A DNA stretch of 62,731 nucleotides from an uncultured Acetobacteraceae bacterium (GTDB lineage: Bacteria; Acidobacteriota; Terriglobia; Terriglobales; Acidobacteriaceae): NCBI GenBank assembly GCA_964657465.1, contig CAZZVD010000002.1, positions 1-62,731 of the forward strand. The letters are read 5' to 3'. Position 1 is the first letter of the stretch; each line of letters begins with the position of its first letter. The position numbers and the translations under genes are program-made. The notes beneath the pieces are model-generated. The model saw only the letters and a program-made list of their open reading frames with translations. It searched no databases and was not told the origin of the DNA. Of the stretch, positions 7,854-57,980 are shown one piece after another.

Positions 7854-8417
7854 TCATGGTTGCTTTTGGACGGTGCCTGCGATGTAACTGGTAAAGCGTT
7901 GTGACGTCGCGGCTTGCGCAATCTGAAAATCGATGGCTAATCGACCGTTGGCCTGCTGGGCATAGGTGAAACGGAAGCGTGGAAAGCCGGCGGCGCCTTC
8001 CGTCGAAGTCATCACGACTTTAGCCGGAGATGAGCTGACCGACACGTTGAAGGTCAGAAAATGGCCCTCATTGTCAAATAGATCGGCGCGCTGCTTAAGT
8101 CCGTACAAATAGACGTACACGATGCTGCGGTAAGTAAATTCAGGCTTTCCCGCTTGCGCGGCGAACTGTTGCTGACTGGTAAACACAAGGACTTTGCCGT
8201 CCAGATCTTGTTTGAAGGTAAACTGTCCGGGACCCTCGCCGGCGAACCCTTTGCCGGTGCCCCCCCAGGTGCCCATGAGGAATTGCCAGTCCCGCCATTG
8301 ATACATGCGATCGCGCGCCGTACGGTAAGACAGATCCTGGGCGTCTACCTTTGGGTGCGGTGCCTGGGCCGGACATGCCATTGCAACCAGCAGTGCAGCA
8401 AGAGTAATCCGTTTCAT
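7854..8417 (-). CDS. Secreted hypothetical protein (paralog of 49963-50490)
   Basis: Signal peptide MKRITLAALLVAMACPAQA. Aligns along its length with the 49963-50490 product (GTWGG../GHWFA.., FDNEGH/FDNEGN, GRLAIDFQI/GKLAIKFEM). Starts 24 nt after the upstream gene's stop. Confidence 0.7.
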   Translation of the reverse strand: MKRITLAALLVAMACPAQAPHPKVDAQDLSYRTARDRMYQWRDWQFLMGTWGGTGKGFAGEGPGQFTFKQDLDGKVLVFTSQQQFAAQAGKPEFTYRSIVYVYLYGLKQRADLFDNEGHFLTFNVSVSSSPAKVVMTSTEGAAGFPRFRFTYAQQANGRLAIDFQIAQAATSQRFTSYIAGTVQKQP

Positions 8418-8441: not shown

Positions 8442-9731
8442 TCACAGATCCAGGGTCGTAGAGTTGCGGTTGGGCAGTGTGCCTCGCTCATACGCTCGCT
8501 GGACGGTAGCGATCGATTCTGGTGTGTAGCGGCCGCTCAGTTTCGAACTCATGTCCGGCCGAGTGCGATACACGATTTCCTCAAGGTCCAGCAGGTGGCT
8601 GTGAAACGCAGCGGATAGGTCTTCAGCATGGCTGATCGCCGTTTCTCGGGCGATGTGTCGCGGGCCCAGGCTGGTGTGGGCGATCTCTGCAAACGACTGA
8701 AGTTGATGCTTTTTTAGCAGGGACGCGACCATTAGGTTTTTGCGGTCATTATGAATCTGTTGCGGTTCGTTAAAGGGGAAAAACATGTGGTAATTATGGC
8801 GATCACCGGTCACCGTGCGATAGGTGAGCATGGGAGTATCCGTCTCGCGTGCGGCGCGGACCAGATGCTTTTGGACAAAAAGCTCGAATTCCGGAACTGT
8901 CGGCATGTTCACATTCATCGATAGCTTTCGCCAGTAAGCACCGAAGCGAAAATAGCGCCTCTTGTTGAGAGGCGGCGCGTTGGTCACCTGGTCCCGATAG
9001 GCCAGGATTTTATCTGCCGCGGGCACGATGTATTTGTGGACGAAATCTTCAAACTCTGGCTCCACCCCCGGTTGCACGTAGAGATAAACAACGCGAAGAT
9101 ATCGTCCCAGATCATAGGGAACCTTCCCCGTCTCAGTCGCCGTCGCGCCGGTGTAGGACAACTCGGGCGCCACCAGGGCCACCGTTTTAGATTCCCCGAA
9201 CTGCATACCGTAGAGGTGTTTAAAGCGTTGCCATGATTCCGAAGCAGGGTCGAGTTCGTCGTCTCCCTTGTCCAGAGCCCACTGCACGCGCAGGGGCATG
9301 ATTTCGCTGTCGAGCTGATCGCCCAGGTTTTCAAAAGGAAACAACAGCGTGTACAAGTTGTCGCGCGCGGAGTCGCCGGTTTGATCTCTCAGGTAGCCTG
9401 CATTTGGGTTGTACTCCGACAGCTCGAGTTCGCAATCATCGAATGCATGATTGTGCAGATCGTAAGACATCTTGTGTGGGGCGGCGCCCGGAGGGCCAGG
9501 CTTGACCGCAGGAGGTTTGGGCTTTGTGAATCGTCTTTGCGCGGTAAGCCCAAACTGGGCTTGAACCGCTCCTCACGAGCCGCCGTCAGCCAGTTGCCGG
9601 AGCCGCGGCATAAGGTCCGAATTCGGACTGGGTACTGCCTTCTGTTTCTCAGGAACACTCTGACCCATTAGTCGGGAGGTTCCATATCCTAGAGCCGTCG
9701 TCGCAAGATGTAGAAAGGTTCGCCGTTTCAT
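8442..9731 (-). CDS. Candidate TAT-exported selenoprotein, uncharacterised family (in-frame UGA at 9573-9575 = codon 53); paralog of 36144-37430
   Basis: The ORF track splits it into 9573-9791 (MKRRTFLHL... twin-arginine signal) and 8442-9470. Both are in the same frame with no other stop between them. The sequence after the TGA (GAVQAQFGL) is conserved with the paralog. A SECIS-like hairpin lies 10 nt downstream. The gene lies directly downstream of selC-selA-selB. The conservative alternative is two separate ORFs. Confidence 0.6.
9541..9569 (-). promoter_or_regulatory. SECIS-like stem-loop downstream of the in-frame UGA
   Basis: Minus-strand reading: UGA-gga-GCGGT-tc-AAGCCCA-guu-UGGGCUU-ACCGC. 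The 17-nt upper hairpin (9546-9562) starts 10 nt after the UGA and has G-U in the apical loop. The lower stem has a 2-nt bulge. Confidence 0.55.
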
Positions 9732-9845
9732 AGTCACGACCTTTGTTGGTGAGCAAAACATAACATACAAATATCCGCAGCAACAAAACAAAGTTTATTA
9801 ATTACAATTTGCCCGCGCATCAACGAGCGGAGTCAATCGCTGTTG

Positions 9846-11774
9846 CTAAAGCACGAGACGCGAGTCACCATCGCGGCGAGTAAGTTTTGACTTGTCCAGG
9901 AACTCCAGCAAAGGGATGGCGTGCTTACGGGTTAACCCGGTCAGGTTTTTAAATTGCTGAACGTTGAGTGCCTTGCCTCTATAGGGCGCCAGCAGTGTGG
10001 CTAACCCTGAAACCGAGTCGTGGTGTAGGAACAGCGTGCCGTCTACCGGGATAAGAAGCCGCTCGCGCAACAGCGACGTCACCAGGGGCCTCACCGTCTG
10101 AGGGTCGAGACAGAGTTCTCCCAGAACTTCGGGAATGGAGCGCGCTGCCAGGGGAGATTTTTTGAAGGCAGCTAAAATGCTCAGTTGGATTCGCTTCTCC
10201 GCTACGCTTGCACCCACATGGTAGCCTGCCGGCGCGAGGAGGTCACCGGACACCCGCAACTTCTTATCCTGCATACCCTGAGCGACGATCGCGCCGAAAA
10301 TCCCGGACGGCAGCTTACTACGATTGAGCAACTCTGCCTTTCGCACCGCTCCTTCGTGCGGCCGAGCCTTAAGCAGCTGGGCCAGGTGTTGATCGAAGTG
10401 TTCGATGGCTAAGTGGTAGTGCGAGCTGGTTATCAGGCATTCTCCGCCGATGAGCAGGAGCCGCTGTTTTTGGGTGAGCGACGGCAACAATCGCTGCTTT
10501 ATCTCCTCCCCGGTGAGCAGCATCTCGCGGCAGGCCATGGACAGTTCGAGCCCCTGCATGCCTCGCCTTGCAGCGCGTTCGACTAACTCATCCGCGGGAT
10601 CCTTGATCTCTTGTAACTGCCGCAGCCACTGGTAGTTGTGCAGCTTCTTGATGCCAGGTAAGGGTTGGGCTTCAATCACGATTCCACCCCCAATGGTTCC
10701 AACGGGCGACGGCTGCCGCAGCACAAAGCGGTCGCCGCGGGCAACCAGTATGGGGCTCATCAATTTCAATCTGGCGAGGCCGCGGCTTCCTGCCGTCAGG
10801 GAAGTCTGGCTGTAGAGATTGACCCGCGCCACCACGTCTGTCGCGAAGACGTGCAAGTGCACCATGCTGCGATGTTTGAGCGTGGTGGCTCCCGGCGAGA
10901 GCGAAAGCTCAACATCGATAAGGTCCAGGGCTGCGATGGAATGCGTGGATACTAAGGTGTCGCCGCGCCTTACCTGATCGCGCTCGACCCCGGAGAGATT
11001 GAGGGCGACCCTGGTGCGCGAAGCTACATGCTGTACATGGCTGGAGTGGACCTGGATATTTCTTACTCGTACCTCTTTCCCCGACGGCTCCAGCACCAGC
11101 GATTGCCCCCTCGTCAGCTGGCCTGAAACCAGCGTCCCGGTAACGACGGTGCCGGCGCCTGTTATCGAGAAGGAGCGATCGATGGGCAGGCGCGCCGGTT
11201 GCCCTAGCCCTTGCGAAGGCAGGCCATGGGCCACTTTGCGCAGCGCAGCCTTAAGCTCGTTCAGACCAGTCCGCTGCAGGCTGCTTACGTGCAGTATGGG
11301 GTTGTGACGGCAGTCGAGGAATGTTCCGGACAAGAATTCCTCCACGTTCGTGTGCACCGTCTCTAGCCGATCCGGGCTTACGGCGTCGATCTTGGTGAGG
11401 ACGGTGATGCCGCGATCGATGCCAAGCAGGCTGCAGATCTCAAGATGTTCGACAGTTTGGGGGCGTATGCCATCGTCTGCAGCGATGACCAGAAGCACAC
11501 AGTTGATGCCGCCTGCGCCGGCCAACATATTGCGCACGAATAACTTGTGGCCGGGCACATCGACGAAGCTAACGCGTAGCGGAGAGCCATCGTCGAGTGC
11601 GTCATCCAGGAAGGCAAACCCCAGATCGATGGTGATGCCGCGCGCCTTCTCTTCCCGATGGGTATCCGTGTCGATTCCAGTAAGCGCCTTCACCAAGCTG
11701 GTTTTGCCGTGGTCGATGTGGCCGGCGGTACCAACAACCAGGTAGGTTGGATCGGTTTGCTGATGATTGATCAT
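9846..11774 (-). CDS. selB: Selenocysteine-specific translation elongation factor SelB
   Basis: N-terminal GTPase motifs (GTAGHIDHGKTSL, DVPGH, TKID) followed by a long winged-helix C-terminal extension. ATGA overlap with selA. Confidence 0.9.
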   Translation of the reverse strand: MINHQQTDPTYLVVGTAGHIDHGKTSLVKALTGIDTDTHREEKARGITIDLGFAFLDDALDDGSPLRVSFVDVPGHKLFVRNMLAGAGGINCVLLVIAADDGIRPQTVEHLEICSLLGIDRGITVLTKIDAVSPDRLETVHTNVEEFLSGTFLDCRHNPILHVSSLQRTGLNELKAALRKVAHGLPSQGLGQPARLPIDRSFSITGAGTVVTGTLVSGQLTRGQSLVLEPSGKEVRVRNIQVHSSHVQHVASRTRVALNLSGVERDQVRRGDTLVSTHSIAALDLIDVELSLSPGATTLKHRSMVHLHVFATDVVARVNLYSQTSLTAGSRGLARLKLMSPILVARGDRFVLRQPSPVGTIGGGIVIEAQPLPGIKKLHNYQWLRQLQEIKDPADELVERAARRGMQGLELSMACREMLLTGEEIKQRLLPSLTQKQRLLLIGGECLITSSHYHLAIEHFDQHLAQLLKARPHEGAVRKAELLNRSKLPSGIFGAIVAQGMQDKKLRVSGDLLAPAGYHVGASVAEKRIQLSILAAFKKSPLAARSIPEVLGELCLDPQTVRPLVTSLLRERLLIPVDGTLFLHHDSVSGLATLLAPYRGKALNVQQFKNLTGLTRKHAIPLLEFLDKSKLTRRDGDSRLVL

Positions 11775-13249
11775 GAAACTGACCGCGCGAGACCGATGGG
11801 ATGGCTGTTACCGATGACGGTTTTCAAATGGTTGATCAGAAGAGCATCGGACTCCGGCGTTATGGTCCGGAGGTCCAGAGCTACTGAGCCCTTGTAAGTC
11901 CTTGAGACTACTGGTGGGTCGAGTGACCGCAAAGCAGACGCGAGCGCGCCCGCGGTCCATGTCGGGTGATCCACGATCAGCAGAACGGTTTCGAGAGTTG
12001 CCCCCGGAGTCGTTCCTCCTCCGATCAGACTCGTGTCCGGTTGCAAATAGATCGTTGCGCCGGTCGTGCTCAGCGAGTCCCTGATATTTTCGGCCCGTGC
12101 CTGTAATCGCCCCAGCGTCTGTTGCAACATCCGGCTGATGGGAATATCGGGAGTTTGAAAGTCGAGGTACTCCTGCAGCGTACTGTCCAGCGCGGCGTAC
12201 ACCATTTTATCGACGCGGAACGTACGCAGCATGGGGTTTTGGCGGATACTCTCTATGGAACGGGACTGGCCGACAACGATTCCACACTGGGGACCGCCCA
12301 GCAACTTATCGCCGCTGCACACCACGATATGTACGCCGGCTTTGAGGCCTTTGATCAAGGTGTCTTCCCCAGAGATGCCATAGTCCTCCAGAACCAGCAG
12401 GCAGCCAGTGCCCTGATCTTCAAAGAGAATCTTGCCGTGTTCCTTGCACAGGGCGGCCAGGTCGGCTGAGGAAGGTGATTCCACGAAGCCGGTCATGGTG
12501 AAATTGGCGGGATGCACCCGCAAGAGCAAAGCGGTCTCCTCGGTGATCGCCTTGGCGTAGTCAGAGGCGCGCGTGCGATTGGTCGTCCCCACCTCGCGCA
12601 GGATCGCGCCGGACTTCGCGAGGATGTCAGGAATACGGAATCCGCCGCCAATTTCCAGAAGTTCCCCACGGGAGACGATGGTTTCCTTGCCGTCGGAAAG
12701 AGAATTCAGGACCAGGAAAGTAGCCGCCGCACAGTTGTTCACGACGATGGCGCGATAATCCTCCAGGAAATCCTGCAGCGGCAGACCGGCATGTTGTGCG
12801 AGCACGCGAAGCACCAACTGTTCAACATGGTCGTCGCGTTTGCCTCGCTCGCCAGTTGCCAGGTTGAATTCGAGATTGCAATAGCCGCCGGCAACGCGGG
12901 CAACATTTTCGAGCGCCTTTGCGCTTAAAGGAGCACGGCCCAGGTTGGTATGCAGCAAAACTCCTGTGGCATTCAGTACTGGCACCAGGGATGGACGGTT
13001 CGCGTCGCGGATGTGGTCGTGAATGGTCTGAGAGAGCCTGGATAACTCGGTTTCGAATGTATCCTCCTGTACTTCTCCGGAGGCGATTCGCTGGCGTAAC
13101 AATTGCAAACAGTCCCGGATGACGCGAATCACGAGATGCCGGGGGAAGTTCTTCAGCAGAGGTTTCAATTCCTCTGATCTTGCCAGTTCATCGATTGAGG
13201 GCAACCGGTGATAACTCATGAAGGCCGTTTTAGAGAGCGGGTCAATCAC
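11771..13249 (-). CDS. selA: L-seryl-tRNA(Sec) selenium transferase SelA
   Basis: N-terminal LPSIDELA motif, PLP-enzyme core and length fit SelA. The start is placed at GTG 13249 (GAGGA RBS 4 nt upstream); ATG 13219 is an alternative. The 13378 start in the ORF track would run through the tRNA-Sec gene. Confidence 0.85.
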   Translation of the reverse strand: MIDPLSKTAFMSYHRLPSIDELARSEELKPLLKNFPRHLVIRVIRDCLQLLRQRIASGEVQEDTFETELSRLSQTIHDHIRDANRPSLVPVLNATGVLLHTNLGRAPLSAKALENVARVAGGYCNLEFNLATGERGKRDDHVEQLVLRVLAQHAGLPLQDFLEDYRAIVVNNCAAATFLVLNSLSDGKETIVSRGELLEIGGGFRIPDILAKSGAILREVGTTNRTRASDYAKAITEETALLLRVHPANFTMTGFVESPSSADLAALCKEHGKILFEDQGTGCLLVLEDYGISGEDTLIKGLKAGVHIVVCSGDKLLGGPQCGIVVGQSRSIESIRQNPMLRTFRVDKMVYAALDSTLQEYLDFQTPDIPISRMLQQTLGRLQARAENIRDSLSTTGATIYLQPDTSLIGGGTTPGATLETVLLIVDHPTWTAGALASALRSLDPPVVSRTYKGSVALDLRTITPESDALLINHLKTVIGNSHPIGLARSVS

Positions 13250-13302
13250 GGCGTCCTCGATAATCAGGTTCTGGCATGTCGATGGTATAGAGGCAAGGGG
13301 CC

Positions 13303-13396
13303 TGGCGGAAGCGCGTGCGAGTCGAACACACCGTCGCCCGTAGGGACGACCACCGGTTTTGAAGACCGGGAGGATCACCGGAGCCTAAGCGCTTCC
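13303..13396 (-). tRNA. selC: tRNA-Sec (anticodon UCA)
   Basis: Minus strand: GGAAGCGC...CGGTCTTCAAAACCG...GTCGTCC-CTAC-GGGCGAC...GTGTG-TTCGACT-CGCAC-GCGCTTCC-G-CCA. It has an 8-bp acceptor stem, a 5-bp T stem, a 7-bp variable arm and a UCA anticodon. It closely parallels E. coli selC. Confidence 0.9.
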
Positions 13397-15578: not shown

Positions 15579-17531
15579 TTGATGGAGAGAGTGATGTCTA
15601 TCTTGAAGCGCAATTTGCTGTGTTTTTTTACCGTGATCCTTTGGTGCCTGCCTTTCCATGCTCAGATAGTCAGGCACCTGCAGTATGCGGGTCTTTCGGG
15701 CGCGCGCTCAGCAGCCGCGGGTGAAACGACGTTGCCGGCGCGGGAACCGGACGCCAAGCTGAGTGCTTACCTGCATCGTTCGCTGGCAAAAGCTCCCGCG
15801 TCTTCGTTTGTACCCGGCAATCGTGTGGTGGGACCTGCCGCAGAGGCGATGAGTGCCCGCACTGCGCCCGCAAAGGATCCCGTGGCCCTGACGGTAAAAG
15901 GCGGCGGCCACGAATTGCGCGAGAGCTTCGACGGCCTGAATTATTATCAGCAACGAAACGCGAATGATGGAAACCAGTATGCCATCGAGCCGACCGATCC
16001 TGGACTGTGTGCCGGGAATGGCTTCGTGCTGGAAACCGTGAACGAAATACTGCGCGTGTTCGATACGCATGGTAACCCGGTCGCGGCTCCCCTGGATGTC
16101 TACACCTTTTACGGGTACCCACCTGCCATCAACCGTACCACGGGCGCATTCGGGCCGTCGATCACGGACGAACATTGTTTTTACGATAAATCGAGCCGGC
16201 GGTGGTTTCATATTGCCCATACTCTCGACCGGGATCCGTTGACCAACGGTATACCAGGCACGAACCACCTTGATCTGGCCGTCAGCCGGAGCGATGATCC
16301 TACTGGTAGCTGGAGTATTTACAAACTGCCGGTTCAGGACGACGGGACGGATGGAACCCCCAACCACGCTTGCCAGTACGGCCCATGTTTTGGGGACTTT
16401 CCCCAGATAGCTGTCGACAAAAACGGCATTTACATAACCACCAATGAATTTGCATTCTTTGGCCCCGGCTTTCATGGATCGCAGATCTATGCACTTTCAA
16501 AAAAACAGTTGATTGACGGCGAGTCAGATCCAACAGTGGTGCAATTCGACACCGCTGATGCTGCTTATCTCTTCGAGGGGAACCCGGGCTACTCCGTGCA
16601 GCCTGCCCTGGACTTTGCCCAGGACTCTCCCGGTGGACGGCACGGCACCGAATTTCTGCTGAGCAACCTTGCCGGCTTTAACACCGTCGATGACCGGCTA
16701 CAGATCTGGAGCCTGAAAAATACGGAGTCGCTGGCGGGGCACTCCCCGCAGCTAAGCCTCAAGATGGGCACAGTTACGGTGAAGAGCTATTCATCTCCAC
16801 CCGACTCAGTGCAGAAGCCAGGACCTTTTCCGCTAGGACAATGTATCAACGACACGACCCTGCCAACGCCTTACGGCGCAGGATGCTGGCGGAATCTACT
16901 ATTGGGGGCGGAACCCGCGCATAATGAGACCCTCTACAACCTTCCCAGCAACGATGGACGTATGACCGAAGTAGTCATATCCAACGGCAAGCTGTGGGGT
17001 TCTTTCGATACCACGGTTACAATTGCCGGCCAGCCAGTCGCTGGACTGCAGTATTTCGCCCTTTGGCCCTGGGTCAACAGTTCGGGACCGGGGGCGAAGG
17101 TATTGTTGAGCTCGAATATCGGCGTCAAGGGGAACAACCTGACGTATCCTTCCATCGCTGCGACCCCCTGGGGCAGGGCAGTTATCGCATACACCCTGAT
17201 TGGCCCGGACTATTACCCCGCTTCGGCTTACACAATGCTTGATGTTTTTGGAGAATGCGATAAGACGGTGCGCGTTGCTGCAGCCGGCAAGGGCCCACAA
17301 GATGGATTTGAAGGCTACGCAGCTTTTGGCAGCTCGCCGCGATGGGGCACCTACAGCTCGGCGCTTCTGGATGGCGACTCGTTCTGGATTAACACTGAAT
17401 ACATAGGGCAGTCCTGCACCTTGGCGGAGTACGCTTCCGATCCGCCTGCCAGTTTGAGCTGCGGTAAATCTCGAGCAACCCTTGCAAACTGGGGCACAAG
17501 GATCAGTCGGATTTCCCCCAATGTCTGGTAG
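15579..17531 (+). CDS. Secreted hypothetical protein, 650 aa
   Basis: Signal peptide (LLCFFTVILWCLPFHAQ). Long uninterrupted ORF with genome-typical composition. I recognise no family. Confidence 0.7.
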   Translation: MMERVMSILKRNLLCFFTVILWCLPFHAQIVRHLQYAGLSGARSAAAGETTLPAREPDAKLSAYLHRSLAKAPASSFVPGNRVVGPAAEAMSARTAPAKDPVALTVKGGGHELRESFDGLNYYQQRNANDGNQYAIEPTDPGLCAGNGFVLETVNEILRVFDTHGNPVAAPLDVYTFYGYPPAINRTTGAFGPSITDEHCFYDKSSRRWFHIAHTLDRDPLTNGIPGTNHLDLAVSRSDDPTGSWSIYKLPVQDDGTDGTPNHACQYGPCFGDFPQIAVDKNGIYITTNEFAFFGPGFHGSQIYALSKKQLIDGESDPTVVQFDTADAAYLFEGNPGYSVQPALDFAQDSPGGRHGTEFLLSNLAGFNTVDDRLQIWSLKNTESLAGHSPQLSLKMGTVTVKSYSSPPDSVQKPGPFPLGQCINDTTLPTPYGAGCWRNLLLGAEPAHNETLYNLPSNDGRMTEVVISNGKLWGSFDTTVTIAGQPVAGLQYFALWPWVNSSGPGAKVLLSSNIGVKGNNLTYPSIAATPWGRAVIAYTLIGPDYYPASAYTMLDVFGECDKTVRVAAAGKGPQDGFEGYAAFGSSPRWGTYSSALLDGDSFWINTEYIGQSCTLAEYASDPPASLSCGKSRATLANWGTRISRISPNVW

Positions 17532-19171: not shown

Positions 19172-20242
19172 ATGGCAACCAGCGAGACAGTCCGATTGAC
19201 GCAACACACCAAAAGCGGAGGTTGCGCCAGTAAATTGGCGCCGGGCTCCTTGCAGGCCGTGTTAGCCAAGCTGCCACGACAGAAAGACGACATGATGTTA
19301 GTCGGTTTCGATACTTCCGACGACGCCGGCGTCTACCAGATAAGCCCCGATCTGGCGCTTGTCAACACTGTGGATTTCTTCACGCCACTTATCGACGATC
19401 CGTACACATTCGGTCAGGTCGCGGCGACCAACGCGTTGAGCGATGTCTACGCGATGGGTGGAAGACCGATTACCGCGCTGGCGGTGGTTTGCTTTCCAGA
19501 AGACGGAGACTTCGATGTGCTTGCTCAGATTATGAAGGGCGGCCTGGCCAAGATGGCGGAGGCGGGTTGTGCCGTGGTTGGCGGGCATACAGTCCGGGAC
19601 GCCGAGGTGAAGTTCGGCTATGCGATCACAGGTTTGATTGACCCGGCGCGCGTGTTTACCAACTCAGGAGCGAAGCCCGGCGACAAATTGATTCTCACCA
19701 AGCCCATAGGCACAGGGGTCATCACTACAGCGTTGAAGCAGAATAAGGCGCAGGAGTCCTGGGTAGCCGCAGCGATCTCACAGATGACGAAACTGAATAA
19801 GCAAGCCTCGGATCTGATTGTCAAGGAGTCATTCGACGTCCATGCAGTCACAGACGTTACGGGCTTCGGCTTGATGGGGCACGCGCGTGAACTGGCCCGG
19901 GGCAGCGAGGTGAGCCTGGAGATTCAGGTCGAAGCCATACCGTTACTCGAAGGAGCACTGGAGGCAGTGCATCTTGGAGCGGTGCCCGCGGGACTGCTTG
20001 CCAACCGGGAATTTGCAGAGTGCATTGTTTCCTGCGGCCCTGCATCCGACATTGCCGAAGATCTGAAGACCCTTCTGTATGATCCGCAGACCTCGGGCGG
20101 GTTGTTGATTTCGCTTAGCGCGCAAAAAGCCGACGAGTTGGTGACCCGGTTGCACGCTCTTGGTATCTTTGCCGCGATGATCGGCCGGGTGCTTGACCCG
20201 CAAAAGACCCGGACGAGGTCAGGCGAGATTCGCTTGGTGTAG
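19172..20242 (+). CDS. selD: Selenide, water dikinase (selenophosphate synthetase) SelD, Cys form
   Basis: N-terminal SGGCASKL loop (Cys/Lys equivalent to E. coli C17/K20) and an AIR-synthase-like fold. GAGGAA RBS. Starts 29 nt after the ligase gene. Confidence 0.9.
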   Translation: MATSETVRLTQHTKSGGCASKLAPGSLQAVLAKLPRQKDDMMLVGFDTSDDAGVYQISPDLALVNTVDFFTPLIDDPYTFGQVAATNALSDVYAMGGRPITALAVVCFPEDGDFDVLAQIMKGGLAKMAEAGCAVVGGHTVRDAEVKFGYAITGLIDPARVFTNSGAKPGDKLILTKPIGTGVITTALKQNKAQESWVAAAISQMTKLNKQASDLIVKESFDVHAVTDVTGFGLMGHARELARGSEVSLEIQVEAIPLLEGALEAVHLGAVPAGLLANREFAECIVSCGPASDIAEDLKTLLYDPQTSGGLLISLSAQKADELVTRLHALGIFAAMIGRVLDPQKTRTRSGEIRLV

Positions 20243-31801: not shown

Positions 31802-33553
31802 TTGGCGCATCCCGCGCCCCATAGGAAGGTACGAAGCAGAGATATCCGGGGTGATGCGATCAGTTACACTTCCAGACTGAAACTAAGGAGCCCAAAGACC
31901 AGGGATTGCTTGTGGGTCTTGCTTCTTGTGACAGTTTCGGTAGCTTTTTACGCCGTGACCATCGATAGATCCTCTTATCTTTACATTCTGCGGGCGGACG
32001 AAGGCTACGGTTTTTCCGCCGCTGTGCGGACGGCAAGCGGTCAGATTCCGCAAAAAGATTTTAGCTATGCCTACGGTCCCATCATGCCTTTTGTCTATGC
32101 AGTCTCTTTTAAGCTGCTGGGCGTCAGCCTTTATGCGATGAGGGCGACCTGGGCGCTGCTGTACACGGTGAGCGTGGTTCTTTTCTATGGGATAGCCCGG
32201 CAGATTTTGCCAGCACTGCCATCGGCGACCGCAGCTATCTGCCTTGTAGGACAACTCCACCCACCGTTGTATTCCTACAACCATGTGGGTTTGGTCATCG
32301 CAGTGCAGGCGGCTTTATTGTTGGCCATGCGTTTGCTCGTTGAACCCGGCAGACTTCGGCTTTGGGCCGCGTTGTCAGCGATGTTTACGCTGGCCTTCCT
32401 GATCAAGTTCAACGAAGGGCTGGCGGTGATCGCGTTTCTTTCCGCCGGGTTCGGTTTATGGCTTACCCGCAAGGGCATCGGGCTGCCAAACCGGAAGGTA
32501 TTCATGCTCCGGTGGTTGGCTGTGTGTACCGTGCCGGTGTTGCTTTTTGCCGCCGTGACCTTTGGGCTGAATTACCAGCTTACGGCCGCCGAGTTCTGGA
32601 GAAATTTCCCGGTTCTGCCGGAGTATCACGCAAGTGTCGGCGGGTACCAGTTCGTTCTCAGGCTGTTGACTTCTCCCGTTCATTTGAAAATGGACGGAGC
32701 TTCCGCTTGGAAATGGTGGAGCTTGTGGTACGAGAACTACGTTCTCGCGGTGTTGGCAAGCCTTGCAGCCGGGATAGCCGCACTCCTGTGTCTCGGCGCC
32801 TTTTTCGCATTCAGACTGCGCGATTCTATGAGCGGCGATACCTGGAATGCCGTGTTGTTGGGTTGCTGCGTGCTGGCTCTTTATCACGAGTTTTATCTAA
32901 CCGGAAATCATTGGGCAACACCGATGTATCTGGGGTTCGCGGTCGTTTTTGGAGTGTGGCTCGTGTATCGACTCGCGGCGCCTCTCCCTGCGGTTCGCTA
33001 CGCCGCTCTCGCCCTGCTCTTTGGTGTCTCCGCCGCCTCATGTGTGACCTACTACATGGTTGGCCGAATGTATTTTTCGCAGTACGATTTGAGCTTACAG
33101 CGAGCTCGCATCCGGAGCTCGTCCGACAGCGATGCGTCTACTGTGCAGCAGGTGGTCGATTACATCCAGCACACCACGCCGGCGGGCACTGCGATGGCTG
33201 CTTTCCCGCACGACAGTCTTTTGCTGCACCTGGCCGGACTGCCGAACGGATTGCGTGATGACGACTACCAATGGATGCTGTTCCCTACGGAGGATTCCGA
33301 TGCACAGCTGACCGCAGAATTGAAGCGTAAACAGATCAGCCGGCTGCTCATCTCTAACTTCGTCGGCTTTCGTGGAAGAAAGCTTATGTTTTTCGGCCAG
33401 GACTATCTTCCTCAGACCTATCAGTACATCCTCTCTGCATATCACCCTGTTCAGACCTTTGACAATGGCCTCAGCGGATATGCTGTCACTTACTACGAAA
33501 GCAACACTTCTGGTTCCGCGGCCGTTGCTGCGTTGAACGGAGCGCAAAAATGA
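31802..33553 (+). CDS. Polytopic membrane glycosyltransferase, GT-C fold (ArnT/PMT, GT39/83-like)
   Basis: More than 10 predicted TM segments. An early-loop acidic motif (RADEGYGF). Large C-terminal soluble domain. The start codon is uncertain. Confidence 0.6.
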   Translation: MAHPAPHRKVRSRDIRGDAISYTSRLKLRSPKTRDCLWVLLLVTVSVAFYAVTIDRSSYLYILRADEGYGFSAAVRTASGQIPQKDFSYAYGPIMPFVYAVSFKLLGVSLYAMRATWALLYTVSVVLFYGIARQILPALPSATAAICLVGQLHPPLYSYNHVGLVIAVQAALLLAMRLLVEPGRLRLWAALSAMFTLAFLIKFNEGLAVIAFLSAGFGLWLTRKGIGLPNRKVFMLRWLAVCTVPVLLFAAVTFGLNYQLTAAEFWRNFPVLPEYHASVGGYQFVLRLLTSPVHLKMDGASAWKWWSLWYENYVLAVLASLAAGIAALLCLGAFFAFRLRDSMSGDTWNAVLLGCCVLALYHEFYLTGNHWATPMYLGFAVVFGVWLVYRLAAPLPAVRYAALALLFGVSAASCVTYYMVGRMYFSQYDLSLQRARIRSSSDSDASTVQQVVDYIQHTTPAGTAMAAFPHDSLLLHLAGLPNGLRDDDYQWMLFPTEDSDAQLTAELKRKQISRLLISNFVGFRGRKLMFFGQDYLPQTYQYILSAYHPVQTFDNGLSGYAVTYYESNTSGSAAVAALNGAQK

Positions 33554-35106
33554 AGGTGCTTCTGCTGTTTGCTAATACGCTCGCCGACCGCACTGCCCGC
33601 GAATCGAAAGGCACACGCATTGGCATCCTCCCCCCATTGGGTCTTGGATATATTGCAAGCGTTCTGCAGCGCGAAGGGCACGAAGTTCGCATTATCGATA
33701 CCCGCATCGATCCGATCACCCCAGGCGTGGCGGAGGAGATCGTAAGGTACGCACCTGGAGTCATCGGCATATCCATTTTCGTTATTTCGGAGATCGAGGG
33801 ATATAAGCTCGCCGAGACGATGAAGTCGCTGCTGCCCGACGTTCCCATCGTGATGGGCGGTCCGCAGGTCAGCTACTTTCCCCGTGCCCCTTTTGAACGC
33901 TGTGCGGCCGTCGATTTCACTGTTGAGGGCGAGGGAGAGTACACCATGCGCGACCTGGTGGCCGCCCTGGAAAACCACCAGCCTTTGGCGCCCGTAAAAA
34001 ATATTTACTATCGCGGTCTTGACGGTCAGGTTATTGCCACGGGAGGGCCGCACTCGATTCCCGATTTGGATGACCTGCCGCCGCCCGCGAGAGAACTATT
34101 CTCTCTCAAGCGGTATGCGCCTGAAGTCTACGAGTTTCGGTCCCTGCCCGCCACCAATATTCTGGCGACTCGTGGCTGCGCCTATGGACAATGCAGTTTC
34201 TGCTTCGAAGCGGGAAAGTTTCGTACCAAGTATCGTTACCTGTCGGCCCTGCGCCTTATCGAGGAGATCGAAAGCCTGCGTGATACGTACGGCTTTCGAG
34301 AGATAGTCTTCAACGACGATGATCTTTTGTCGAATGGCAAGCTTCTCATGGAGTTTTCTCGACTGGCCATCGAGCGGAATTTAGGTGTGCGTTGGAGCTG
34401 CTGGGGAAGGGTCACACCCTGCACCCGCAACCTTTTAGCCACGATCGCAAAAGCCGGTTGTTGGTTAGTTTCCTTCGGGATCGAGTCGGGAAATCAACAA
34501 TTGCTCGACAAACTGCAAAAGGGAATGACCCTGGAGAAATGCCGCCAGGTGGTCGGCTGGTGTCATGAGTTGGGCATCGAGGTGATGGGAACATTCATGT
34601 TGGCGATCCCGGGGGAAACTCCGGCAACGGCCCTGGAAACGATTCAGTTCGCCAAAGAGCTGGATCTTAGCTACGCGGCGTTTATCCCTACCCACCCGCT
34701 GTTCGGAACCCCGCTTTTCGAAACGTGTATTGAAGAGGGCAGGCTGGTGAAGTCGCCCTATCACCATGAAGCGGTAGAAACCCGATACCTTCCCAAAATC
34801 TCATTTGTTCCGGATGGATACAAGGATGAGCGCGAGGTAGAGCAAATGCTCAAGAAAGCCTACCGAAGCTTCTATATCAGGCCAGCGTATTTCCTTAAAC
34901 ATCTAAAAATGTTGCGGTCGTGGAGTGCAGTCAAAAAATACTATATCGGTGTGAAGTTTGCTTTGTCCCTTATGAACAATTGGGGTAATCCGCAGGATTC
35001 CCGTTACACGGTCCGCTACAGCAGTCTCCCGGAGTATGCCCCGGAAAAGGCGGTTTCCCTCGTCAATACGATAGGACCCGTAAAACTCACGCAACCTAAC
35101 TTGTGA
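33550..35106 (+). CDS. B12-binding-domain radical SAM enzyme, paralog of 14091-15533
   Basis: ATGA overlap with the upstream gene. N-terminal B12-binding block (PPLGLGYIASVL). The cluster motif is CAYGQCSFC (CX4CX2C). Confidence 0.8.
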   Translation: MKVLLLFANTLADRTARESKGTRIGILPPLGLGYIASVLQREGHEVRIIDTRIDPITPGVAEEIVRYAPGVIGISIFVISEIEGYKLAETMKSLLPDVPIVMGGPQVSYFPRAPFERCAAVDFTVEGEGEYTMRDLVAALENHQPLAPVKNIYYRGLDGQVIATGGPHSIPDLDDLPPPARELFSLKRYAPEVYEFRSLPATNILATRGCAYGQCSFCFEAGKFRTKYRYLSALRLIEEIESLRDTYGFREIVFNDDDLLSNGKLLMEFSRLAIERNLGVRWSCWGRVTPCTRNLLATIAKAGCWLVSFGIESGNQQLLDKLQKGMTLEKCRQVVGWCHELGIEVMGTFMLAIPGETPATALETIQFAKELDLSYAAFIPTHPLFGTPLFETCIEEGRLVKSPYHHEAVETRYLPKISFVPDGYKDEREVEQMLKKAYRSFYIRPAYFLKHLKMLRSWSAVKKYYIGVKFALSLMNNWGNPQDSRYTVRYSSLPEYAPEKAVSLVNTIGPVKLTQPNL

Positions 35107-35118
35107 TTGGAGTAAACC

Positions 35119-36147
35119 ATGAAGGCAGATCGGACGATAGGAGGGCTGGTGGTTCTGATGGGCGGTTTGCTCACTCAGTGCTCAGCTCAAACCTTTATCA
35201 GGGCGATTCTCCCCAATCCTTCCCCGCAGGAAGCTACGGGATATAAATTCCAAATCCTAACCCCGGGGGCAGTACAGACTGCGTCCCTGCGTAATAACGT
35301 TTTGGTGGCCAGGACCGGCGAAGCCAGAATCCAAACCGTTGCTTATTCCAAGCCGTCACAGCCAAAACTGGACCAGGCGTATCAGATTGCCGCCCACGAG
35401 ACGCCGTCCAGCGTCAAATTCGGATTCGACGATAAGCTCCCCGCGGATGGAAAGATCGATCTGCGGATTTCGTTCAGCCCCACGGATTACTGGAAGGTGT
35501 ATTTCAACGACACATTCCAATATGCCGACGGCCACAGCGAACGCTCCCGGATTCCCTATGCCGCGTTCTTTGTCAACTTTACGCCGACCAAGGATCCCGC
35601 AAAGGTCCTGGCAACGTTGACCGTCATTAACAACATCGCTTCAACGTACGGCATCGCCAGCAACGTGGTGAACGATGAAAAGCGACCGACCATCAACTTT
35701 AAGCATGCCACTGTATTTATTAACAACGATCTGCACAACTACAACCTGGAGCACTTTGACCAGGCAACCGGACAGAAGGTAGACCTGCCGGCTTCCTTTT
35801 CTCTGAAAAAAGGGGAGTCACAGGTATTCGATCTGGGAGTAGTGAACAAGGACAGCTATGTTTACACCATGTCTGAAGTGAGCTACGAGGGGCAGACCGA
35901 AACCTTCCCAATTGCCTGCGCTCATAGTGCCGACGCCACGGATACAAAGGGCGAAACGATGAGCGATGGACAGAACATGCCGGCGGGTTCGCTCTCCAGC
36001 GTGCAACTGAATTCCAGCGCATCCGCTAAGACCACGACCAGCGAAACCCAAAAACAGCAAACTTCTGATGTTCAGAACAAGCCGGGCGCCACGAGCGAAG
36101 TTCACCCAAAGCGAACGAATCCTGAAAAGAGCAAGGAGCAGAAATGA
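35119..36147 (+). CDS. Secreted hypothetical protein with low-complexity Ser/Thr/Lys-rich tail
   Basis: Signal peptide (LVVLMGGLLTQCSAQ). Its stop overlaps the next gene's ATG (ATGA). Confidence 0.65.
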   Translation: MKADRTIGGLVVLMGGLLTQCSAQTFIRAILPNPSPQEATGYKFQILTPGAVQTASLRNNVLVARTGEARIQTVAYSKPSQPKLDQAYQIAAHETPSSVKFGFDDKLPADGKIDLRISFSPTDYWKVYFNDTFQYADGHSERSRIPYAAFFVNFTPTKDPAKVLATLTVINNIASTYGIASNVVNDEKRPTINFKHATVFINNDLHNYNLEHFDQATGQKVDLPASFSLKKGESQVFDLGVVNKDSYVYTMSEVSYEGQTETFPIACAHSADATDTKGETMSDGQNMPAGSLSSVQLNSSASAKTTTSETQKQQTSDVQNKPGATSEVHPKRTNPEKSKEQK

Positions 36148-37430
36148 AGAGACGATTGTTCTTAAAATCCGGTAGCGGCGCTTTGTTAGCTGCAGGCTCC
36201 GGACTCCTCCCGCTTGTGGGTCAGCAGAAAACCGCGCCCAAAACGGCTCCATCCACCAATACCACGCCTTCGGCGACCGCCCCCAAAGCCGCACCCTCTG
36301 TAACACCGAAGCCCGCGGTTACCTCTTCGGGCGGTTCTTGATCGGCCAATTCAGCCCAGTTTGGGCTGCACGGCACACGGGACTTCCAGCAGAATTCGAA
36401 CGCAGCGAGTGTTGCTCCAACCGACTATCTTCTTGGATCAGACATTCGCAATTATCGCTTCAAAGTCGCCGAATGGAATCCGAATCAGGGCTACATTCAA
36501 AGCGGCGAGGCTGCGACCGCACGCAACAACCTGTATACCTTGCTGTTTCCATTTGAAAACCTGGGTGATCAGCTCGACAGCGAAATCATGCCGCTCAGAG
36601 TACAGTGGGCGCAGGATGCCGGCGAGAGCCACCTCGATCCAAACAGTGCTTCCTGGAAGCGGTTCAAACAGCTGTACAGCTATCAATTCCAGGAGCAGAA
36701 AACGGTTGCTTTGTTTGCGCCGGAACTCTCTTACAAGGGGCCGAGCGATATCAGCACCGATCAGTATGACTTCGGGAGATACCTGCGCATTGTGTATCTC
36801 TATGTCAAGCCCGATAAAATGCCTGAGTTTGAAGACTTTGTCCACAAGTACATCGTGCCGGCTGCGACAGAAATCCTTAAATATCGCGACAAAGTAGTGA
36901 ACGCACCCCCACCCGACCAACGTGAATACTTCAAGCTGGCGCCGCATCTTCGAAAGGTGTCCATAAACGTCAACATGCCAACCATTCCGGAATTCGAATT
37001 GTTCATCCAGCGGTACCTGGTTCCAGCGGCCCAGCGGACGAATACTCCCCTGCTCACCTACCGGACTGTTACCGGGGACAAACACAATTACCACATGCTT
37101 TATCCGTTCGAGGGGAAGCATCAATTCCACTACGACAACAAAAACCTGATCGCGTCTTCATTGTTGCGCGACAATCACCTGCAAATGTTGGCGGAGTCTG
37201 CAGGGGTGCCCAAGTTCACTTTGGCCTCCTACAAACCCAACGACAAAAAGCATGCCGTCGAACAAGCACTCGCCGAAGCCGACGAACTGGCGGCCGAATT
37301 CCATAGTCATGCCATTGAAATGGAAGAAATTGTCTATGTGACTCGACCCGACATGAGCTCTCTTCTAGAGGGGCGCTACACGAAGGAATCGGTAAAGCTG
37401 ATCAACGCGTCGTACACTGCCGGGATGTAG
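36144..37430 (+). CDS. Candidate TAT-exported selenoprotein (in-frame UGA at 36339-36341 = codon 66); paralog of 8442-9731
   Basis: The twin-arginine signal ORF (MKRRLFLKSGSGALLAAG) ends GGS-TGA. The same frame stays open into the 36540-37430 ORF. Homology to the paralog begins immediately after the TGA (SANSAQFGL vs GAVQAQFGL) and well upstream of the first Met. Confidence 0.6.
36352..36368 (+). promoter_or_regulatory. SECIS-like hairpin 10 nt downstream of the in-frame UGA
   Basis: CAGCCCA-guu-UGGGCUG. Position, length and loop are identical to the hairpin at 9546-9562. The outermost pair is C-G here versus A-U there. Confidence 0.55.
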
Positions 37431-37437
37431 GAGATGA

Positions 37438-37470
37438 GGAGCCGGACTTGTGAGCCCGGCTCCATTTTCT
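37438..37470 (+). terminator. Rho-independent terminator after the selenoprotein candidate
   Basis: GGAGCCGG (37438-37445) pairs with CCGGCTCC (37456-37463), followed by attttctcatttt. Confidence 0.6.
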
Positions 37471-37518
37471 CATTTTCGACTCACGAGAGTCATTGTTCTA
37501 CAAGGATGGAGGAAGTCG

Positions 37519-37971
37519 ATGGAAGGTTTGCAGGTAAGAAAGACGGAGCCGTTGCACGTCGTGAGCTTTAAGCATAAAGGTCCATATCAAAATCTGCCCA
37601 AAGCGTATGAGCAGTTTGGTGGTTGGCTGGGACAGTCGAAAGCGCCAACGGCCGGATATTTTCGGGAGATTGGATACGACAACCCAATGATGACTCCGCC
37701 CGAAGAATGCAGGCAGGAGATATGCGTGCCTCTGGCCGGTCACGTAGTACCAGGAAATGGTGTGGAGGTAAAAACGTTACCCGTCGTCGAAGTAGTCTCG
37801 ATGGTGCACAAGGGAGGTCTCGATTTTGAATCGGTGGGGCCCACCTACCAGGCGATGATGAAGTGGTCTGCCGAACAACAACGGCCAACCACGTACTCCA
37901 TCATTACTTATTACACATCTCCAGATGAGAGAACCAACGCTGAAGTAGAAATCGCACTGGTTCTTGCGTAG
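37519..37971 (+). CDS. GyrI-like small-molecule-binding domain protein
   Basis: GGAGG RBS 6 nt upstream of ATG 37519. Pattern ...VVSFKHKGPYQNLPKAYEQF...YFREIGYDNP...EICVPL typical of GyrI-like/AraC-effector-binding domains. Confidence 0.65.
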   Translation: MEGLQVRKTEPLHVVSFKHKGPYQNLPKAYEQFGGWLGQSKAPTAGYFREIGYDNPMMTPPEECRQEICVPLAGHVVPGNGVEVKTLPVVEVVSMVHKGGLDFESVGPTYQAMMKWSAEQQRPTTYSIITYYTSPDERTNAEVEIALVLA

Positions 37972-55914: not shown

Positions 55915-56769
55915 ATGCACACACAGAACGCGAAGACGGTATTACTCATCGGGGCAGTCGCCTACGACCCGAAGGTCGTGACCATCTGGGAAGGCTTCAA
56001 AGAGTATTTCGCCGAGATGGGCTTGTCCATCGACTACACTCTCTATTCAAACTATGACTCGCTGGTCGATGCAAACTTGAAGGGCGAGGTCGACCTTGCA
56101 TGGAACTCACCGCTTGCCTGGGTAAAAAGCCAATTCGTGAGCGGGGGAAAGTGCCGCGCGATTGCAATGCGCGATTCCGATCGCGACTTAACCACAAAGA
56201 TTCTCGTCCGGAATCACTCAGGTCTCACCTCACTTAGGGATCTCCGCGGAAAGCGAATAGCGGTGGGAGCCTCTGATTCGCCCCAGGCAACGCTGATCCC
56301 TCTGGGCATGATTGCCGATTCTGGAATAGTCCCTTCGCTCGACTGTGAAGTCGTCTTTCACGAGGTGATGGTTGGCAAACACGGGGATCATGTCGGCGGC
56401 GAGCGTGATGCCGCGCGGGCGCTTGCCGCCGGGCAGGTGGATGCCGCATGCGTCCTGGATCACAATTATCCAATGTTTATTGACGAGGGAACGCTGGATC
56501 CAGGAACGACGACAGTGCTGGCTACGACTCCTCCGTTCGATCATTGCAACTTTACCGTCGCAGCCGATTTGCCAGATGAAAATGTTAGGCCATTTGTCGA
56601 TCGTCTTTTGGCTATGTCGTTCCAGGATCCGCGAGTCCGTGGTCTCATGGAACTCGAGGGTTTGAAGCGTTGGCTGCCGGCTCGAACATCCGGATACGAC
56701 CAGCTGGAAAAAGCTGTTCAGACGTTGAACTTTTTCGATGCGAAGGATCAGTTAGCCAGGGCGTACTAA
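55915..56769 (+). CDS. PhnD-like periplasmic-binding-fold protein without signal peptide or adjacent ABC partners
   Basis: Similar to phosphate/phosphonate SBPs (GEVDLAWNSPLAWV, RIAVGASDSPQATLIP). The N-terminus is not hydrophobic. Confidence 0.6.
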   Translation: MHTQNAKTVLLIGAVAYDPKVVTIWEGFKEYFAEMGLSIDYTLYSNYDSLVDANLKGEVDLAWNSPLAWVKSQFVSGGKCRAIAMRDSDRDLTTKILVRNHSGLTSLRDLRGKRIAVGASDSPQATLIPLGMIADSGIVPSLDCEVVFHEVMVGKHGDHVGGERDAARALAAGQVDAACVLDHNYPMFIDEGTLDPGTTTVLATTPPFDHCNFTVAADLPDENVRPFVDRLLAMSFQDPRVRGLMELEGLKRWLPARTSGYDQLEKAVQTLNFFDAKDQLARAY

Positions 56770-56807
56770 CTGCAAATACCCCAACCCGGTGCCAGGTCGT
56801 GACTGCA

Positions 56808-57980
56808 ATGCCACCTAAGATGCTTGTCGAACTTGATGACCTGGCTCTGCATGAGGGAGCTGGGGTGCTATTGCGCCGGGCTCTCCAACTGGTTCAAGCC
56901 GGTGACAGCATCGAAATCCATGCGGATTCTGAAGGACTTCAAGACCAACTGGGCGCATGGTGCCGCCAGGCTGGTCATTCGTTCACTGCACAGCAAGGCA
57001 ACAAAGGCGTCTACTCAATAGAATCGGGCGGACACTCCGTAGTCCCATCCATCTCAACGAGTGAAATTGCGGAGGAAGCAGATCCTGCCTGGGGTCTGGC
57101 GCCGCGCGGTGCTCAAATCGAAAAGGGTGGACCCGCCCTCGGCTTCACCCTGTGCCAGAAACGTGATGTCTGGGCATATGAGCTCGACGCAATTTATAAA
57201 CAATCCGTTGCCAACCAGTGGTCGGTCGCGCGCGATCTTTCCTGGAAAGACCTGCCTCGCCTGCCCGAAGAGGTGGAACGTGCGGTCGCCCAGATAATGA
57301 CATTTCTTACCGAAAATGAATACGCTGCCCTCTATGTGCCGGCGCGCTTCATCCCGCGAATTCACCCCCACTATCGCGAAGTGGTGCAAGTGCTGGCCAT
57401 GCAGGTCGCTGATGAGGCTCGTCACGCTGAAGGATTCACACGGCGGGCAGAGGCGGCTGGAGCCGGGCTGGGCACTACTGCGGTGAGCGGTCAGCTTTCC
57501 TTGAAGACGTTATTGGAAGAACCGGATTTCACAACGGCGACGTTTTTGCTGTGTGTCATGGGGGAAGGTACATTTCTAACGCTTCTGAACTTCCTGAGTG
57601 AGCGCGCACCGGACCCTGTTACCGCCGCGCTCATGCGCATGGCGCATCGCGACGAAGCACGCCATGTGGCTTTTGGGATGGAGCACATGCGCTACGTCTT
57701 TGCCCGGGAACCCGAGGTCCGAATGTCGCTGACCGCTGCCGTTGAGCGCCGCAGTCGGATGTTGGCCTCCATCTCAGGTTTGAGTCCGCACGTCCACGAC
57801 GCGTTGGTGCTCTACGCCGGCGGAGGCAATTCGGTCGCGCAGATTCGCGAAGGCGCCAGGCAGGTCGCGTGGTTGCAGAGAGAGATGAACCGGGTGCGAC
57901 AGGACAGATTGCAATCGTTGGGCTTTGAACCCGCACAGGCCGCTGCCATGTCAGCCCACCACACGAAAAATTTTATGTGA
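56808..57980 (+). CDS. Ferritin-like di-iron protein with N-terminal TusA-like (Cys-less) domain
   Basis: Two E...ExxH blocks (QVADEARHAEGF and HRDEARHVAFGMEH). The N-terminal ~75 aa resemble the TusA/SirA fold but lack the CP cysteine. The start was placed at ATG 56808. Confidence 0.55.
   Translation: MPPKMLVELDDLALHEGAGVLLRRALQLVQAGDSIEIHADSEGLQDQLGAWCRQAGHSFTAQQGNKGVYSIESGGHSVVPSISTSEIAEEADPAWGLAPRGAQIEKGGPALGFTLCQKRDVWAYELDAIYKQSVANQWSVARDLSWKDLPRLPEEVERAVAQIMTFLTENEYAALYVPARFIPRIHPHYREVVQVLAMQVADEARHAEGFTRRAEAAGAGLGTTAVSGQLSLKTLLEEPDFTTATFLLCVMGEGTFLTLLNFLSERAPDPVTAALMRMAHRDEARHVAFGMEHMRYVFAREPEVRMSLTAAVERRSRMLASISGLSPHVHDALVLYAGGGNSVAQIREGARQVAWLQREMNRVRQDRLQSLGFEPAQAAAMSAHHTKNFM

Follow-up and report, generated by a model that had tools for sequence, protein, structure and literature searches.

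A candidate bacterial selenoprotein family with an in-frame UGA behind its export signal, encoded in an acidobacterial lipid or polyketide-type gene cluster

Does a conserved in-frame TGA end a short signal-like peptide, or is it decoded so that an export signal and a large downstream domain become one protein? The question is raised by a gene at positions 36144–37430 (plus strand) of contig CAZZVD010000002.1, from an uncultured bacterium of acidobacterial GTDB lineage. The whole stretch of DNA analysed, the 62,731 nucleotides from position 1 of this contig, is called the window here. The gene is a single frame of 429 codons, and its sole internal stop is the TGA at 36339–36341. We conclude, with a probability of a little under nine in ten, that this UGA is read as selenocysteine (Sec) and joins the export signal to a 362-residue domain in one exported protein. 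With its paralog at 9731–8442 (minus strand), the product would constitute a new, small family of bacterial selenoproteins, absent from the family models and the inventory that were checked. The mechanism of decoding would be the canonical bacterial one; the novelty lies in the family.

Translated across the break, the gene reads MKRRLFLKSG...PAVTSSGGS, stop, SANSAQFGLHGTRDF... Its ATG at 36144 shares the tetranucleotide ATGA with the TGA that ends the upstream gene, an overlap already recorded in a preliminary description of the locus. The first segment (36144–36221) encodes the predicted signal peptide, MKRRLFLKSGSGALLAAGSGLLPLVG, with a twin-arginine motif. A linker rich in Pro, Thr, Ala, Ser and Lys follows (36222–36338), ending in SSGGS immediately 5′ of the proposed Sec codon (36339–36341), which would specify residue 66. 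The conserved domain, 362 residues and a TAG stop, occupies 36342–37430; alignments identify within it a QFGL strand and the motifs WNPNxGY, NLYTLLFPF, DQLDSEIMPLRVQWA, HNYH, FHSH and EEIVYxxRPDMS. The earliest in-frame ATG, GTG or TTG after the TGA lies 66 codons on, at 36540, within the conserved NNLYT-L-LFPF block, and the list of open reading frames (ORFs) gives a 296-aa ORF from that point. The preliminary description had called this the first Met: the position stands as that of the first possible start, but the codon is TTG.

The family is sparsely represented in databases. A protein search returned 42 homologs, all unnamed or hypothetical and most of them N-terminally truncated (280–375 aa); one is labelled Candidatus Sulfotelmatobacter. 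When 1.84 billion representative proteins were searched exhaustively with a profile, just 12 matched, suggesting that the family is small. In a scan of GTDB genomes it was found in one metagenome-assembled genome (MAG) only, that of an uncultured member of the Acidobacteriota, and BLASTN against plasmids found no match. Homologous DNA was compared at 26 loci. These hold 23 distinct gene copies from many metagenomes, comprising both window genes and 21 copies from independent samples, in which a single in-frame stop separates a signal-type N-terminus from the conserved domain. At the aligned position the stop is TGA in 23/23 copies and never TAA or TAG, the residue before it is always Ser or Thr, and the signal part and the domain share a reading frame in every copy. 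M-x-R-R with a hydrophobic region is found in the pre-TGA ORFs of 20 copies close to the two window genes; the copy at L026 has no obvious signal, and the distant relatives P0047, P0048 and L025 have signals of the secretory (Sec) type.

Both sides of the TGA appear to be translated as one unit. Substitutions between pairs of homologs in the pre-TGA ORF fall mainly at third codon positions (for example 10:7:32 for L004 versus L011), which argues that this region is translated in the same frame. The motif R-L-x-x-L-x-x-G-G-S-U-G-A-x-Q-S-Q-F-G-I runs across the UGA and is recognisable even in the most distant relatives from the profile search. The 66 codons that follow the TGA, with QFGL, WNPNxGY and NNLYT, are conserved in all homologs yet contain no ATG, GTG or TTG. 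Relatives without a TGA in the Sec column are continuous proteins with a signal peptide: P0032 and P0033 (L002) have GAC (Asp) there, in exact register and without gaps; P0047 (L023) has TGG (Trp); and P0048 (L024), aligned via a short motif, has TGC (Cys). The claim of the preliminary description that the frame stays open through the TGA, so that signal ORF and downstream ORF make one protein, is thus borne out by the translation, the continuous relatives and the UGA-spanning motif. The replacement of Sec by Asp, Trp or Cys in other lineages indicates that the residue is dispensable in some of them.

Several side observations concern individual copies. The copy in the GTDB MAG (L003, around 9800–9995) differs by a frameshift in its signal-peptide region from the near-identical L020 (9740–9914), a contig of another assembly; the frameshift is probably an assembly error. 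In a distant subfamily, two consecutive TGAs (LECS-TGA-TGA-EVNE[ST]QFGI) precede the same hairpin that is described below, at L023 7295–7300 and L025 641–646, on two independent contigs. Judged from their sequence, these copies would be C-S-U-U double-Sec variants decoded from one hairpin. The Trp protein P0047 (L023 4670–5656) is encoded on the same contig as one of them; its gene keeps the stem (AUCCCG/CGGGAU) and has a loop, UUA, without G, and it looks like a recent loss of Sec.

The same layout is found a second time in the window. The paralog (type B; 9731–8442, minus strand) begins with an MKRRTFL... signal, continues to ...LRQLADGGS and the TGA at 9575–9573, and then enters a domain of 376 codons, with the junction GGS-TGA-GAVQAQFGL. 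The gene at 36144–37430 (type A) had been described as the second of two fusions of a twin-arginine translocation (TAT) signal, a TGA and an ORF, and this pairing holds. The two products share 56% protein identity. Stretches of the two genes had also been called near-identical in nucleotides; they are indeed similar, with one exact word of 26 nt, but the degree was overstated, the best-matching block being identical at 62/72 positions (86%) and the genes at 68% over 616 nt. The whole 62.7-kb window contains the motif ‘TGA, 13 nt, CCCRGTNYGGG’ at two places, exactly the two gene sites, and 0/100 dinucleotide-preserving shuffles contain it. In L022, type A and type B copies stand in tandem on one contig (9750–10963 and 11054–12346), each with its TGA and hairpin.

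Every TGA in the family is followed by a hairpin in fixed register, with the upper stem in columns 14–20 and 24–30 and the loop GU(U/C/A). In the gene at 36144–37430 this stem-loop, resembling a selenocysteine insertion sequence (SECIS), was delineated by folding and by an alignment of 19 sequences and spans 36345–36374 (plus strand). Its lower stem, GCC/GGC, pairs 36345–36347 with 36372–36374; its upper stem, CAGCCCA/UGGGCUG, pairs 36352–36358 with 36362–36368; and the apical loop is GUU (36359–36361). The corresponding element of the paralog (9541–9569, minus strand; fold −18.2 kcal/mol) has a lower stem GCGGU/ACCGC, an upper stem AAGCCCA/UGGGCUU and the same GUU loop. At the foot of the upper stem the pair is A-U in the paralog and C-G in the 36144–37430 gene, both sides having changed. 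The model of the bacterial SECIS specifies an apical loop of 3–9 nt, an upper stem of 4–16 bp, a G within the first two loop positions, a distance of 16–37 nt between UGA and loop, and a minimum free energy of at most −7.5 kcal/mol (PMC13188914, Fig. 2). The hairpin agrees with it: the loop is 3 nt, the stem is 7 bp, G comes first and is followed by U, and the spacing is 17 nt. Folded alone, the hairpins give −10.9 kcal/mol (36345–36374) and −9.5 kcal/mol, both under the threshold.

Pairing and covariation were computed on the alignment of 19 sequences. Paired cells make up 90.8%. Covariation scores 0.311, compared with 0.127 for shuffles; 0/500 shuffles reach 0.311 and slid controls give at most 0.09. 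Pair 16:28 is G-C in 11 sequences, U-A in seven and A-U in L026; pair 20:24 is A-U in 14 and G-C in five; and pair 14:30 is A-U in 13 and C-G in two. The covarying changes link different codons, joining Ala/Ser with Leu/Ile, and Gln/Arg with synonymous TTT/TTC. Every Sec copy uses GGG for the Gly within the stem, yet this codon accounts for only 18.7% of the Gly codons of the window. In the Asp homolog (L002) the peptide QTQFGL is retained, yet two of the seven stem pairs are broken, including by a change of GGG to GGC. The linked codon changes, the invariant GGG and the decay of the stem where the peptide is kept together argue that the hairpin is under selection at the RNA level.

The machinery needed for selenocysteine is encoded in the window itself, where tRNA-Sec, selA, selB and selD are all present. 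The tRNA-Sec (13307–13396, minus strand) was found by ARAGORN and matches Rfam RF01852 at 71.7 bits against a gathering score of 47. On the same strand lie selA, listed as an ORF at 11771–13378 (TIGR00474, 495 bits; Pfam SelA domain), and selB at 9846–11774 (TIGR00475, 334 bits; SelB winged-helix and beta-barrel Pfam domains), and the paralog is the next gene after them, so that the order on the minus strand is tRNA-Sec, selA, selB, paralog. The selenophosphate synthetase gene selD, of the Cys type (GGCASK), lies on the plus strand at 19172–20242 (TIGR00476, 379 bits). The listed selA ORF, with a GTG start, overlaps the tRNA by about 70 nt at the 5′ end of the ORF, and its TIGR00474 match begins at residue 57; the true start of selA is therefore probably further downstream. 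The Sec genes (9846–13396 and 19172–20242) are interleaved with a lipid or polyketide-like cluster that includes FabZ-like, B12-radical-SAM and aryl-CoA-ligase-like enzymes, an acyl carrier protein and three ketosynthases. No sel genes were seen flanking the other loci that carry the family. At gathering thresholds, Rfam recognises two tRNAs only in the window, and the hairpin was matched to no Rfam family.

These elements suggest how the gene would be expressed. The UGA at codon 66 would be read as Sec when SelB, carrying Sec-tRNA(Sec), binds the stem-loop a few bases downstream, and the products of selC, selA, selB and selD of the same window would supply the decoding machinery. The product would comprise, in order, a twin-arginine-type signal, the Pro/Thr/Ser-rich linker, Sec, a short QFGL strand and the duplicated strand–helix domain, and its expected read-through junction peptide would be ...TSSGGS-U-SANSAQFGLHGTR. 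The paralog would be decoded in the same way. Selenium would thus be incorporated at residue 66 and, to judge from the N-terminus, the protein is predicted to leave the cytoplasm by the Tat pathway.

Three other explanations of the TGA have to be weighed against decoding as Sec. Were it a genuine stop, a 65-residue signal-like peptide would be made on its own and the domain would be translated from an internal start. Gene callers annotate the locus in this way, with the listed 296-aa ORF from TTG 36540 and with most database homologs similarly truncated to 280–375 aa. The preliminary description itself had named an internal non-AUG start with a separately made 65-aa peptide as the competing case, which is contradicted by the 66 conserved codons past the TGA, where ATG, GTG and TTG are all lacking. 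An exported domain would moreover be left without a signal peptide, the two parts are in frame in 23/23 copies with a stop that is never TAA or TAG, and a conserved motif crosses a stop that continuous versions of the protein do without. We regard this explanation as very improbable. A pseudogene, or an error of sequencing or assembly, is less credible still and can be given almost no weight: the related MAG locus L003 does have a frameshift in the signal region relative to L020, but the same TGA is found in the two window paralogs and in 21 other copies from independent samples, and both flanks are under purifying selection.

Marginally less improbable than a genuine stop, though still a small chance, is read-through of the UGA as Trp, Cys or Arg by a near-cognate tRNA, or reassignment of TGA. 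The near-absence of Cys homologs would fit it, as would the distant relative that has TGG at this position and keeps the stem. TGA, however, terminates 11/29 of the window genes that have family support, including the gene that overlaps the start at 36144. Since it is an ordinary terminator, the code is taken to be standard and the two internal TGAs to be special, and the window does not fit an alternative code (tables 4 or 25) in which TGA would be a sense codon. The complete Sec machinery beside the paralog and a hairpin that fits the SelB-type SECIS model in spacing and loop, and decays where UGA is absent, also speak against read-through of any other kind. The earlier contention that the TGA must be decoded is thereby upheld, resting on the Sec machinery in the window, the TGA in 23 copies, the covarying hairpin, the UGA-spanning motif and the continuous relatives.

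Decoding as Sec, which we prefer, also has points that weigh against it. The hairpin coincides with QxQFGL, a peptide conserved at the protein level too, so that its conservation is in part not driven by the RNA; and the covariation largely tracks subfamily lines, so that there are fewer independent events than the cell counts suggest. The pairing of Sec and Cys homologs is only weakly seen: there is one singleton distant Cys homolog (P0048), and the closest non-Sec relatives have Asp, and one Trp. A search seeded with P0048 for further Cys homologs returned P0048 alone, a singleton in the database. The proposed TAT signal is partly sustained. KRRLFLK and the hydrophobic stretch at the N-terminus of the window copy fit the twin-arginine consensus by eye, but neither of the TAT signal hidden Markov models, TIGR01409 and PF10518, gives this N-terminus a significant score; TIGR01409 is passed only by the homolog L015 (19.4 bits against a cutoff of 16.7). 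The fold assignment is weak as well, Foldseek against the PDB giving no match below 1e-3 (best E 5e-3, template modelling (TM) score at most 0.34), and the functional role of the Sec residue is something that we infer.

As to the protein itself, the read-through product matches no Pfam-A or NCBIfam model at E ≤0.01, and a profile search of PDB sequences found nothing even at E 10. An AlphaFold2 model of the 362 residues after Sec is nevertheless confident (pLDDT, the predicted local distance difference test, 85.5; pTM, the predicted TM score, 0.84) and places the QFGL segment as a strand seven residues after Sec. The domain contains an internal duplication (36780–37031) of two strand–helix units, YLRIVYLYVKPDKMPEFEDFVHKYIVPAA (36780–36866) and HLRKVSINVNMPTIPEFELFIQRYLVPAA (36945–37031), which are 45% identical over 40 residues (BLASTP, E 1e-8) and whose strand–helix pattern is visible in the model. 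The weak Foldseek matches are mostly to alpha+beta barrel proteins: anthrone-oxidase-like/ABM, sulfur oxygenase reductase, chlorite dismutase/HemQ and NIPSNAP. Membership of the ABM or alpha+beta barrel group was not assigned, given E ≥5e-3, TM ≤0.34, no Pfam ABM match and no PDB sequence match, and the resemblance in the model is a lead only. The His, Glu and Asp residues that are invariant in the alignments (FVH, HNYH, FHSH, EEIV and DQLDSE) would fit a site for a metal or cofactor. Sec, on the N-terminal arm, may be a redox-active or a metal- or cofactor-binding residue, and the C-S-U-U motif on two independent contigs suggests that this position serves redox or metal chemistry.

The gene is the last of an operon on the plus strand whose members are separated by minimal gaps. 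A PMT_2-type GT-C glycosyltransferase (31802–33553) is followed by a B12-binding radical SAM enzyme (33550–35106), both recognised by Pfam and NCBIfam models, then by a secreted partner protein (35119–36147) and the candidate selenoprotein. The order is repeated in L022, in agreement with the operon of GT-C, radical SAM and secreted protein that had been described. The partner has 342 aa, two beta-sandwich domains (alignment and a model with pLDDT 75.6) and an invariant C-terminal A-C-x-H. It has no family match, and its top Foldseek match, DUF4466 (4ei0), has E 2e-4 with a TM score of just 0.24–0.27. Partner homologs adjoin family members in type A loci and in every distant locus; their conserved Cys could, speculatively, pair with Sec. 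Type B copies have a different downstream neighbour, a secreted protein of about 185 aa (11 loci, in some of them as a tandem pair). In the window this is a 187-aa protein (7854–8417, minus strand), for which a weak match to the THAP4 heme-binding beta-barrel (Pfam, E 0.005) is the sole family hint. The PMT_2-type GT-C co-occurs with type A copies only, and type A linkers before Sec are rich in Thr, Ser and Pro, for example TTTTTPPTTTTTTTTDTASS-U (L015, L014 and L020 are among the examples); these linkers may be O-glycosylated.

Downstream of the gene, a terminator-like hairpin, GGAGCCGG...CCGGCUCC, is followed by AUUUUCUCAUUUUC (37438–37477, plus strand). The ‘clean terminator’ that had been placed at 37438–37470 is supported in so far as the hairpin (37438–37463) and its T-rich tail fold well, but a simple terminator scan makes no call there, because the loop is longer than 8 nt. 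The GTG start listed for the following GyrI-like ORF (37450–37971) falls within this hairpin; the ATG at 37520, preceded by GGAGG, is a likelier start.

Around the two genes the window has genes for an acyl carrier protein and three ketosynthases, together with a FabZ-like dehydratase and a member of the benzoate-CoA-ligase family. Also present are a second B12-radical-SAM enzyme and a methyltransferase, a GT2 glycosyltransferase, an epimerase and a cupin, as well as a LolA-like/FGE-domain protein, MacB/HlyD exporters and a GerE regulator. These neighbours are found again beside family members in L001, L002, L020, L021 and L022, indicating that the family is part of a conserved lipid or polyketide-type cluster; genes for acyl carrier protein and ketosynthase flank the distant relatives L023 and L024 as well. 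Action of the neighbouring FGE-sulfatase-domain protein on Sec was considered and set aside, since there is no CxPxR motif and this neighbour is also retained beside the Asp homolog. An ORF without a Pfam or NCBIfam match (15579–17531; 650 aa with a signal-like N-terminus) is located between the gene of the first B12-radical-SAM enzyme and that of the CoA ligase. A further ORF (56670–57980), near phosphonate-type ABC binding proteins, has weak DUF455/AurF-like (di-iron) and TusA-like sulfur-carrier matches.

Canonical bacterial selenoprotein genes such as E. coli fdhF and fdnG/fdoG resemble the window genes in their in-frame UGA, in a suitably spaced stem-loop whose small apical loop contains G-U, and in the use of selA, selB, selC and selD. 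Counting from the U of UGA, the loop G of the 36144–37430 gene is nucleotide 21, against nucleotide 23 in fdhF. FdnG and FdoG, which are exported by the Tat pathway, already combine a twin-arginine signal with Sec. The families are unrelated, however: the window protein has no molybdopterin domain, its Sec is on an N-terminal arm after a low-complexity linker, and its Cys homologs are nearly absent. Compared with dimeric alpha+beta barrel proteins, some of which work in polyketide pathways, it has similar duplicated strand–helix units with the pattern V-K-P-x-x-x-x-E-F-E-x-F, but it is longer, would be exported, carries the Sec arm and has no significant match in sequence or structure. A 2026 review lists 119 prokaryotic selenoprotein families or subfamilies in its Table 1, each with a Pfam, TIGR, NF, cd or PTHR identifier and including the NCBIfam models of Haft (PMC13188914). 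The logic by which such families are discovered (truncated annotated N-termini, a conserved TGA, a SECIS and a sel neighbourhood) applies here too; and, as there is no Pfam-A or NCBIfam match at E ≤0.01, the present family matches none of those that are defined by Pfam or NCBIfam. The literature searched contained no description of the family, nor of a selenoprotein in a cluster of this kind. Current selenoprotein predictors rely on Cys homologs (PMC13188914; deep-Sep, PMC12013277), which are nearly absent here, and the family would therefore have been missed.

Several consequences follow for annotation and prediction. The database entries of the family are wrong in both key residue and localisation, because nearly all of them are truncated at the N-terminus and have no signal peptide. 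The case also exposes a blind spot: the neighbourhood of sel genes combined with SECIS covariation can find families that pipelines built on Sec/Cys pairs miss. The unusual traits of this one would be an exported protein whose Sec sits on an N-terminal arm, near-absence of Cys homologs, double-Sec relatives and sel genes within a biosynthetic cluster.

For the organism, the family connects selenium with a conserved acidobacterial cluster in which acyl carrier protein, ketosynthases, B12-radical-SAM enzymes and glycosyltransferases are combined with MacB-type exporters, a link that was not found in the literature searched. The protein may have an extracytoplasmic role, acting on the product of the surrounding cluster of acyl carrier protein, ketosynthase, aryl-CoA-ligase-like and B12-radical-SAM genes, or in concert with it. 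A bolder idea, which we hold only tentatively and think rather unlikely, is that the two paralogs are the reason why the organism keeps Sec, the complete machinery having been co-opted by a lipid or polyketide-type cluster for exported enzymes whose N-terminal Sec carries out a selenium-specific extracytoplasmic step on the cluster product, for which Cys is no substitute. Such a step, if real, would explain both the near-absence of Cys homologs and the C-S-U-U double-Sec variants, and the cluster would represent a selenium-dependent natural-product or envelope-lipid pathway. The link between selenium and the cluster implies that both selB and a supply of selenium should be needed for making the product of the cluster, or the two proteins.

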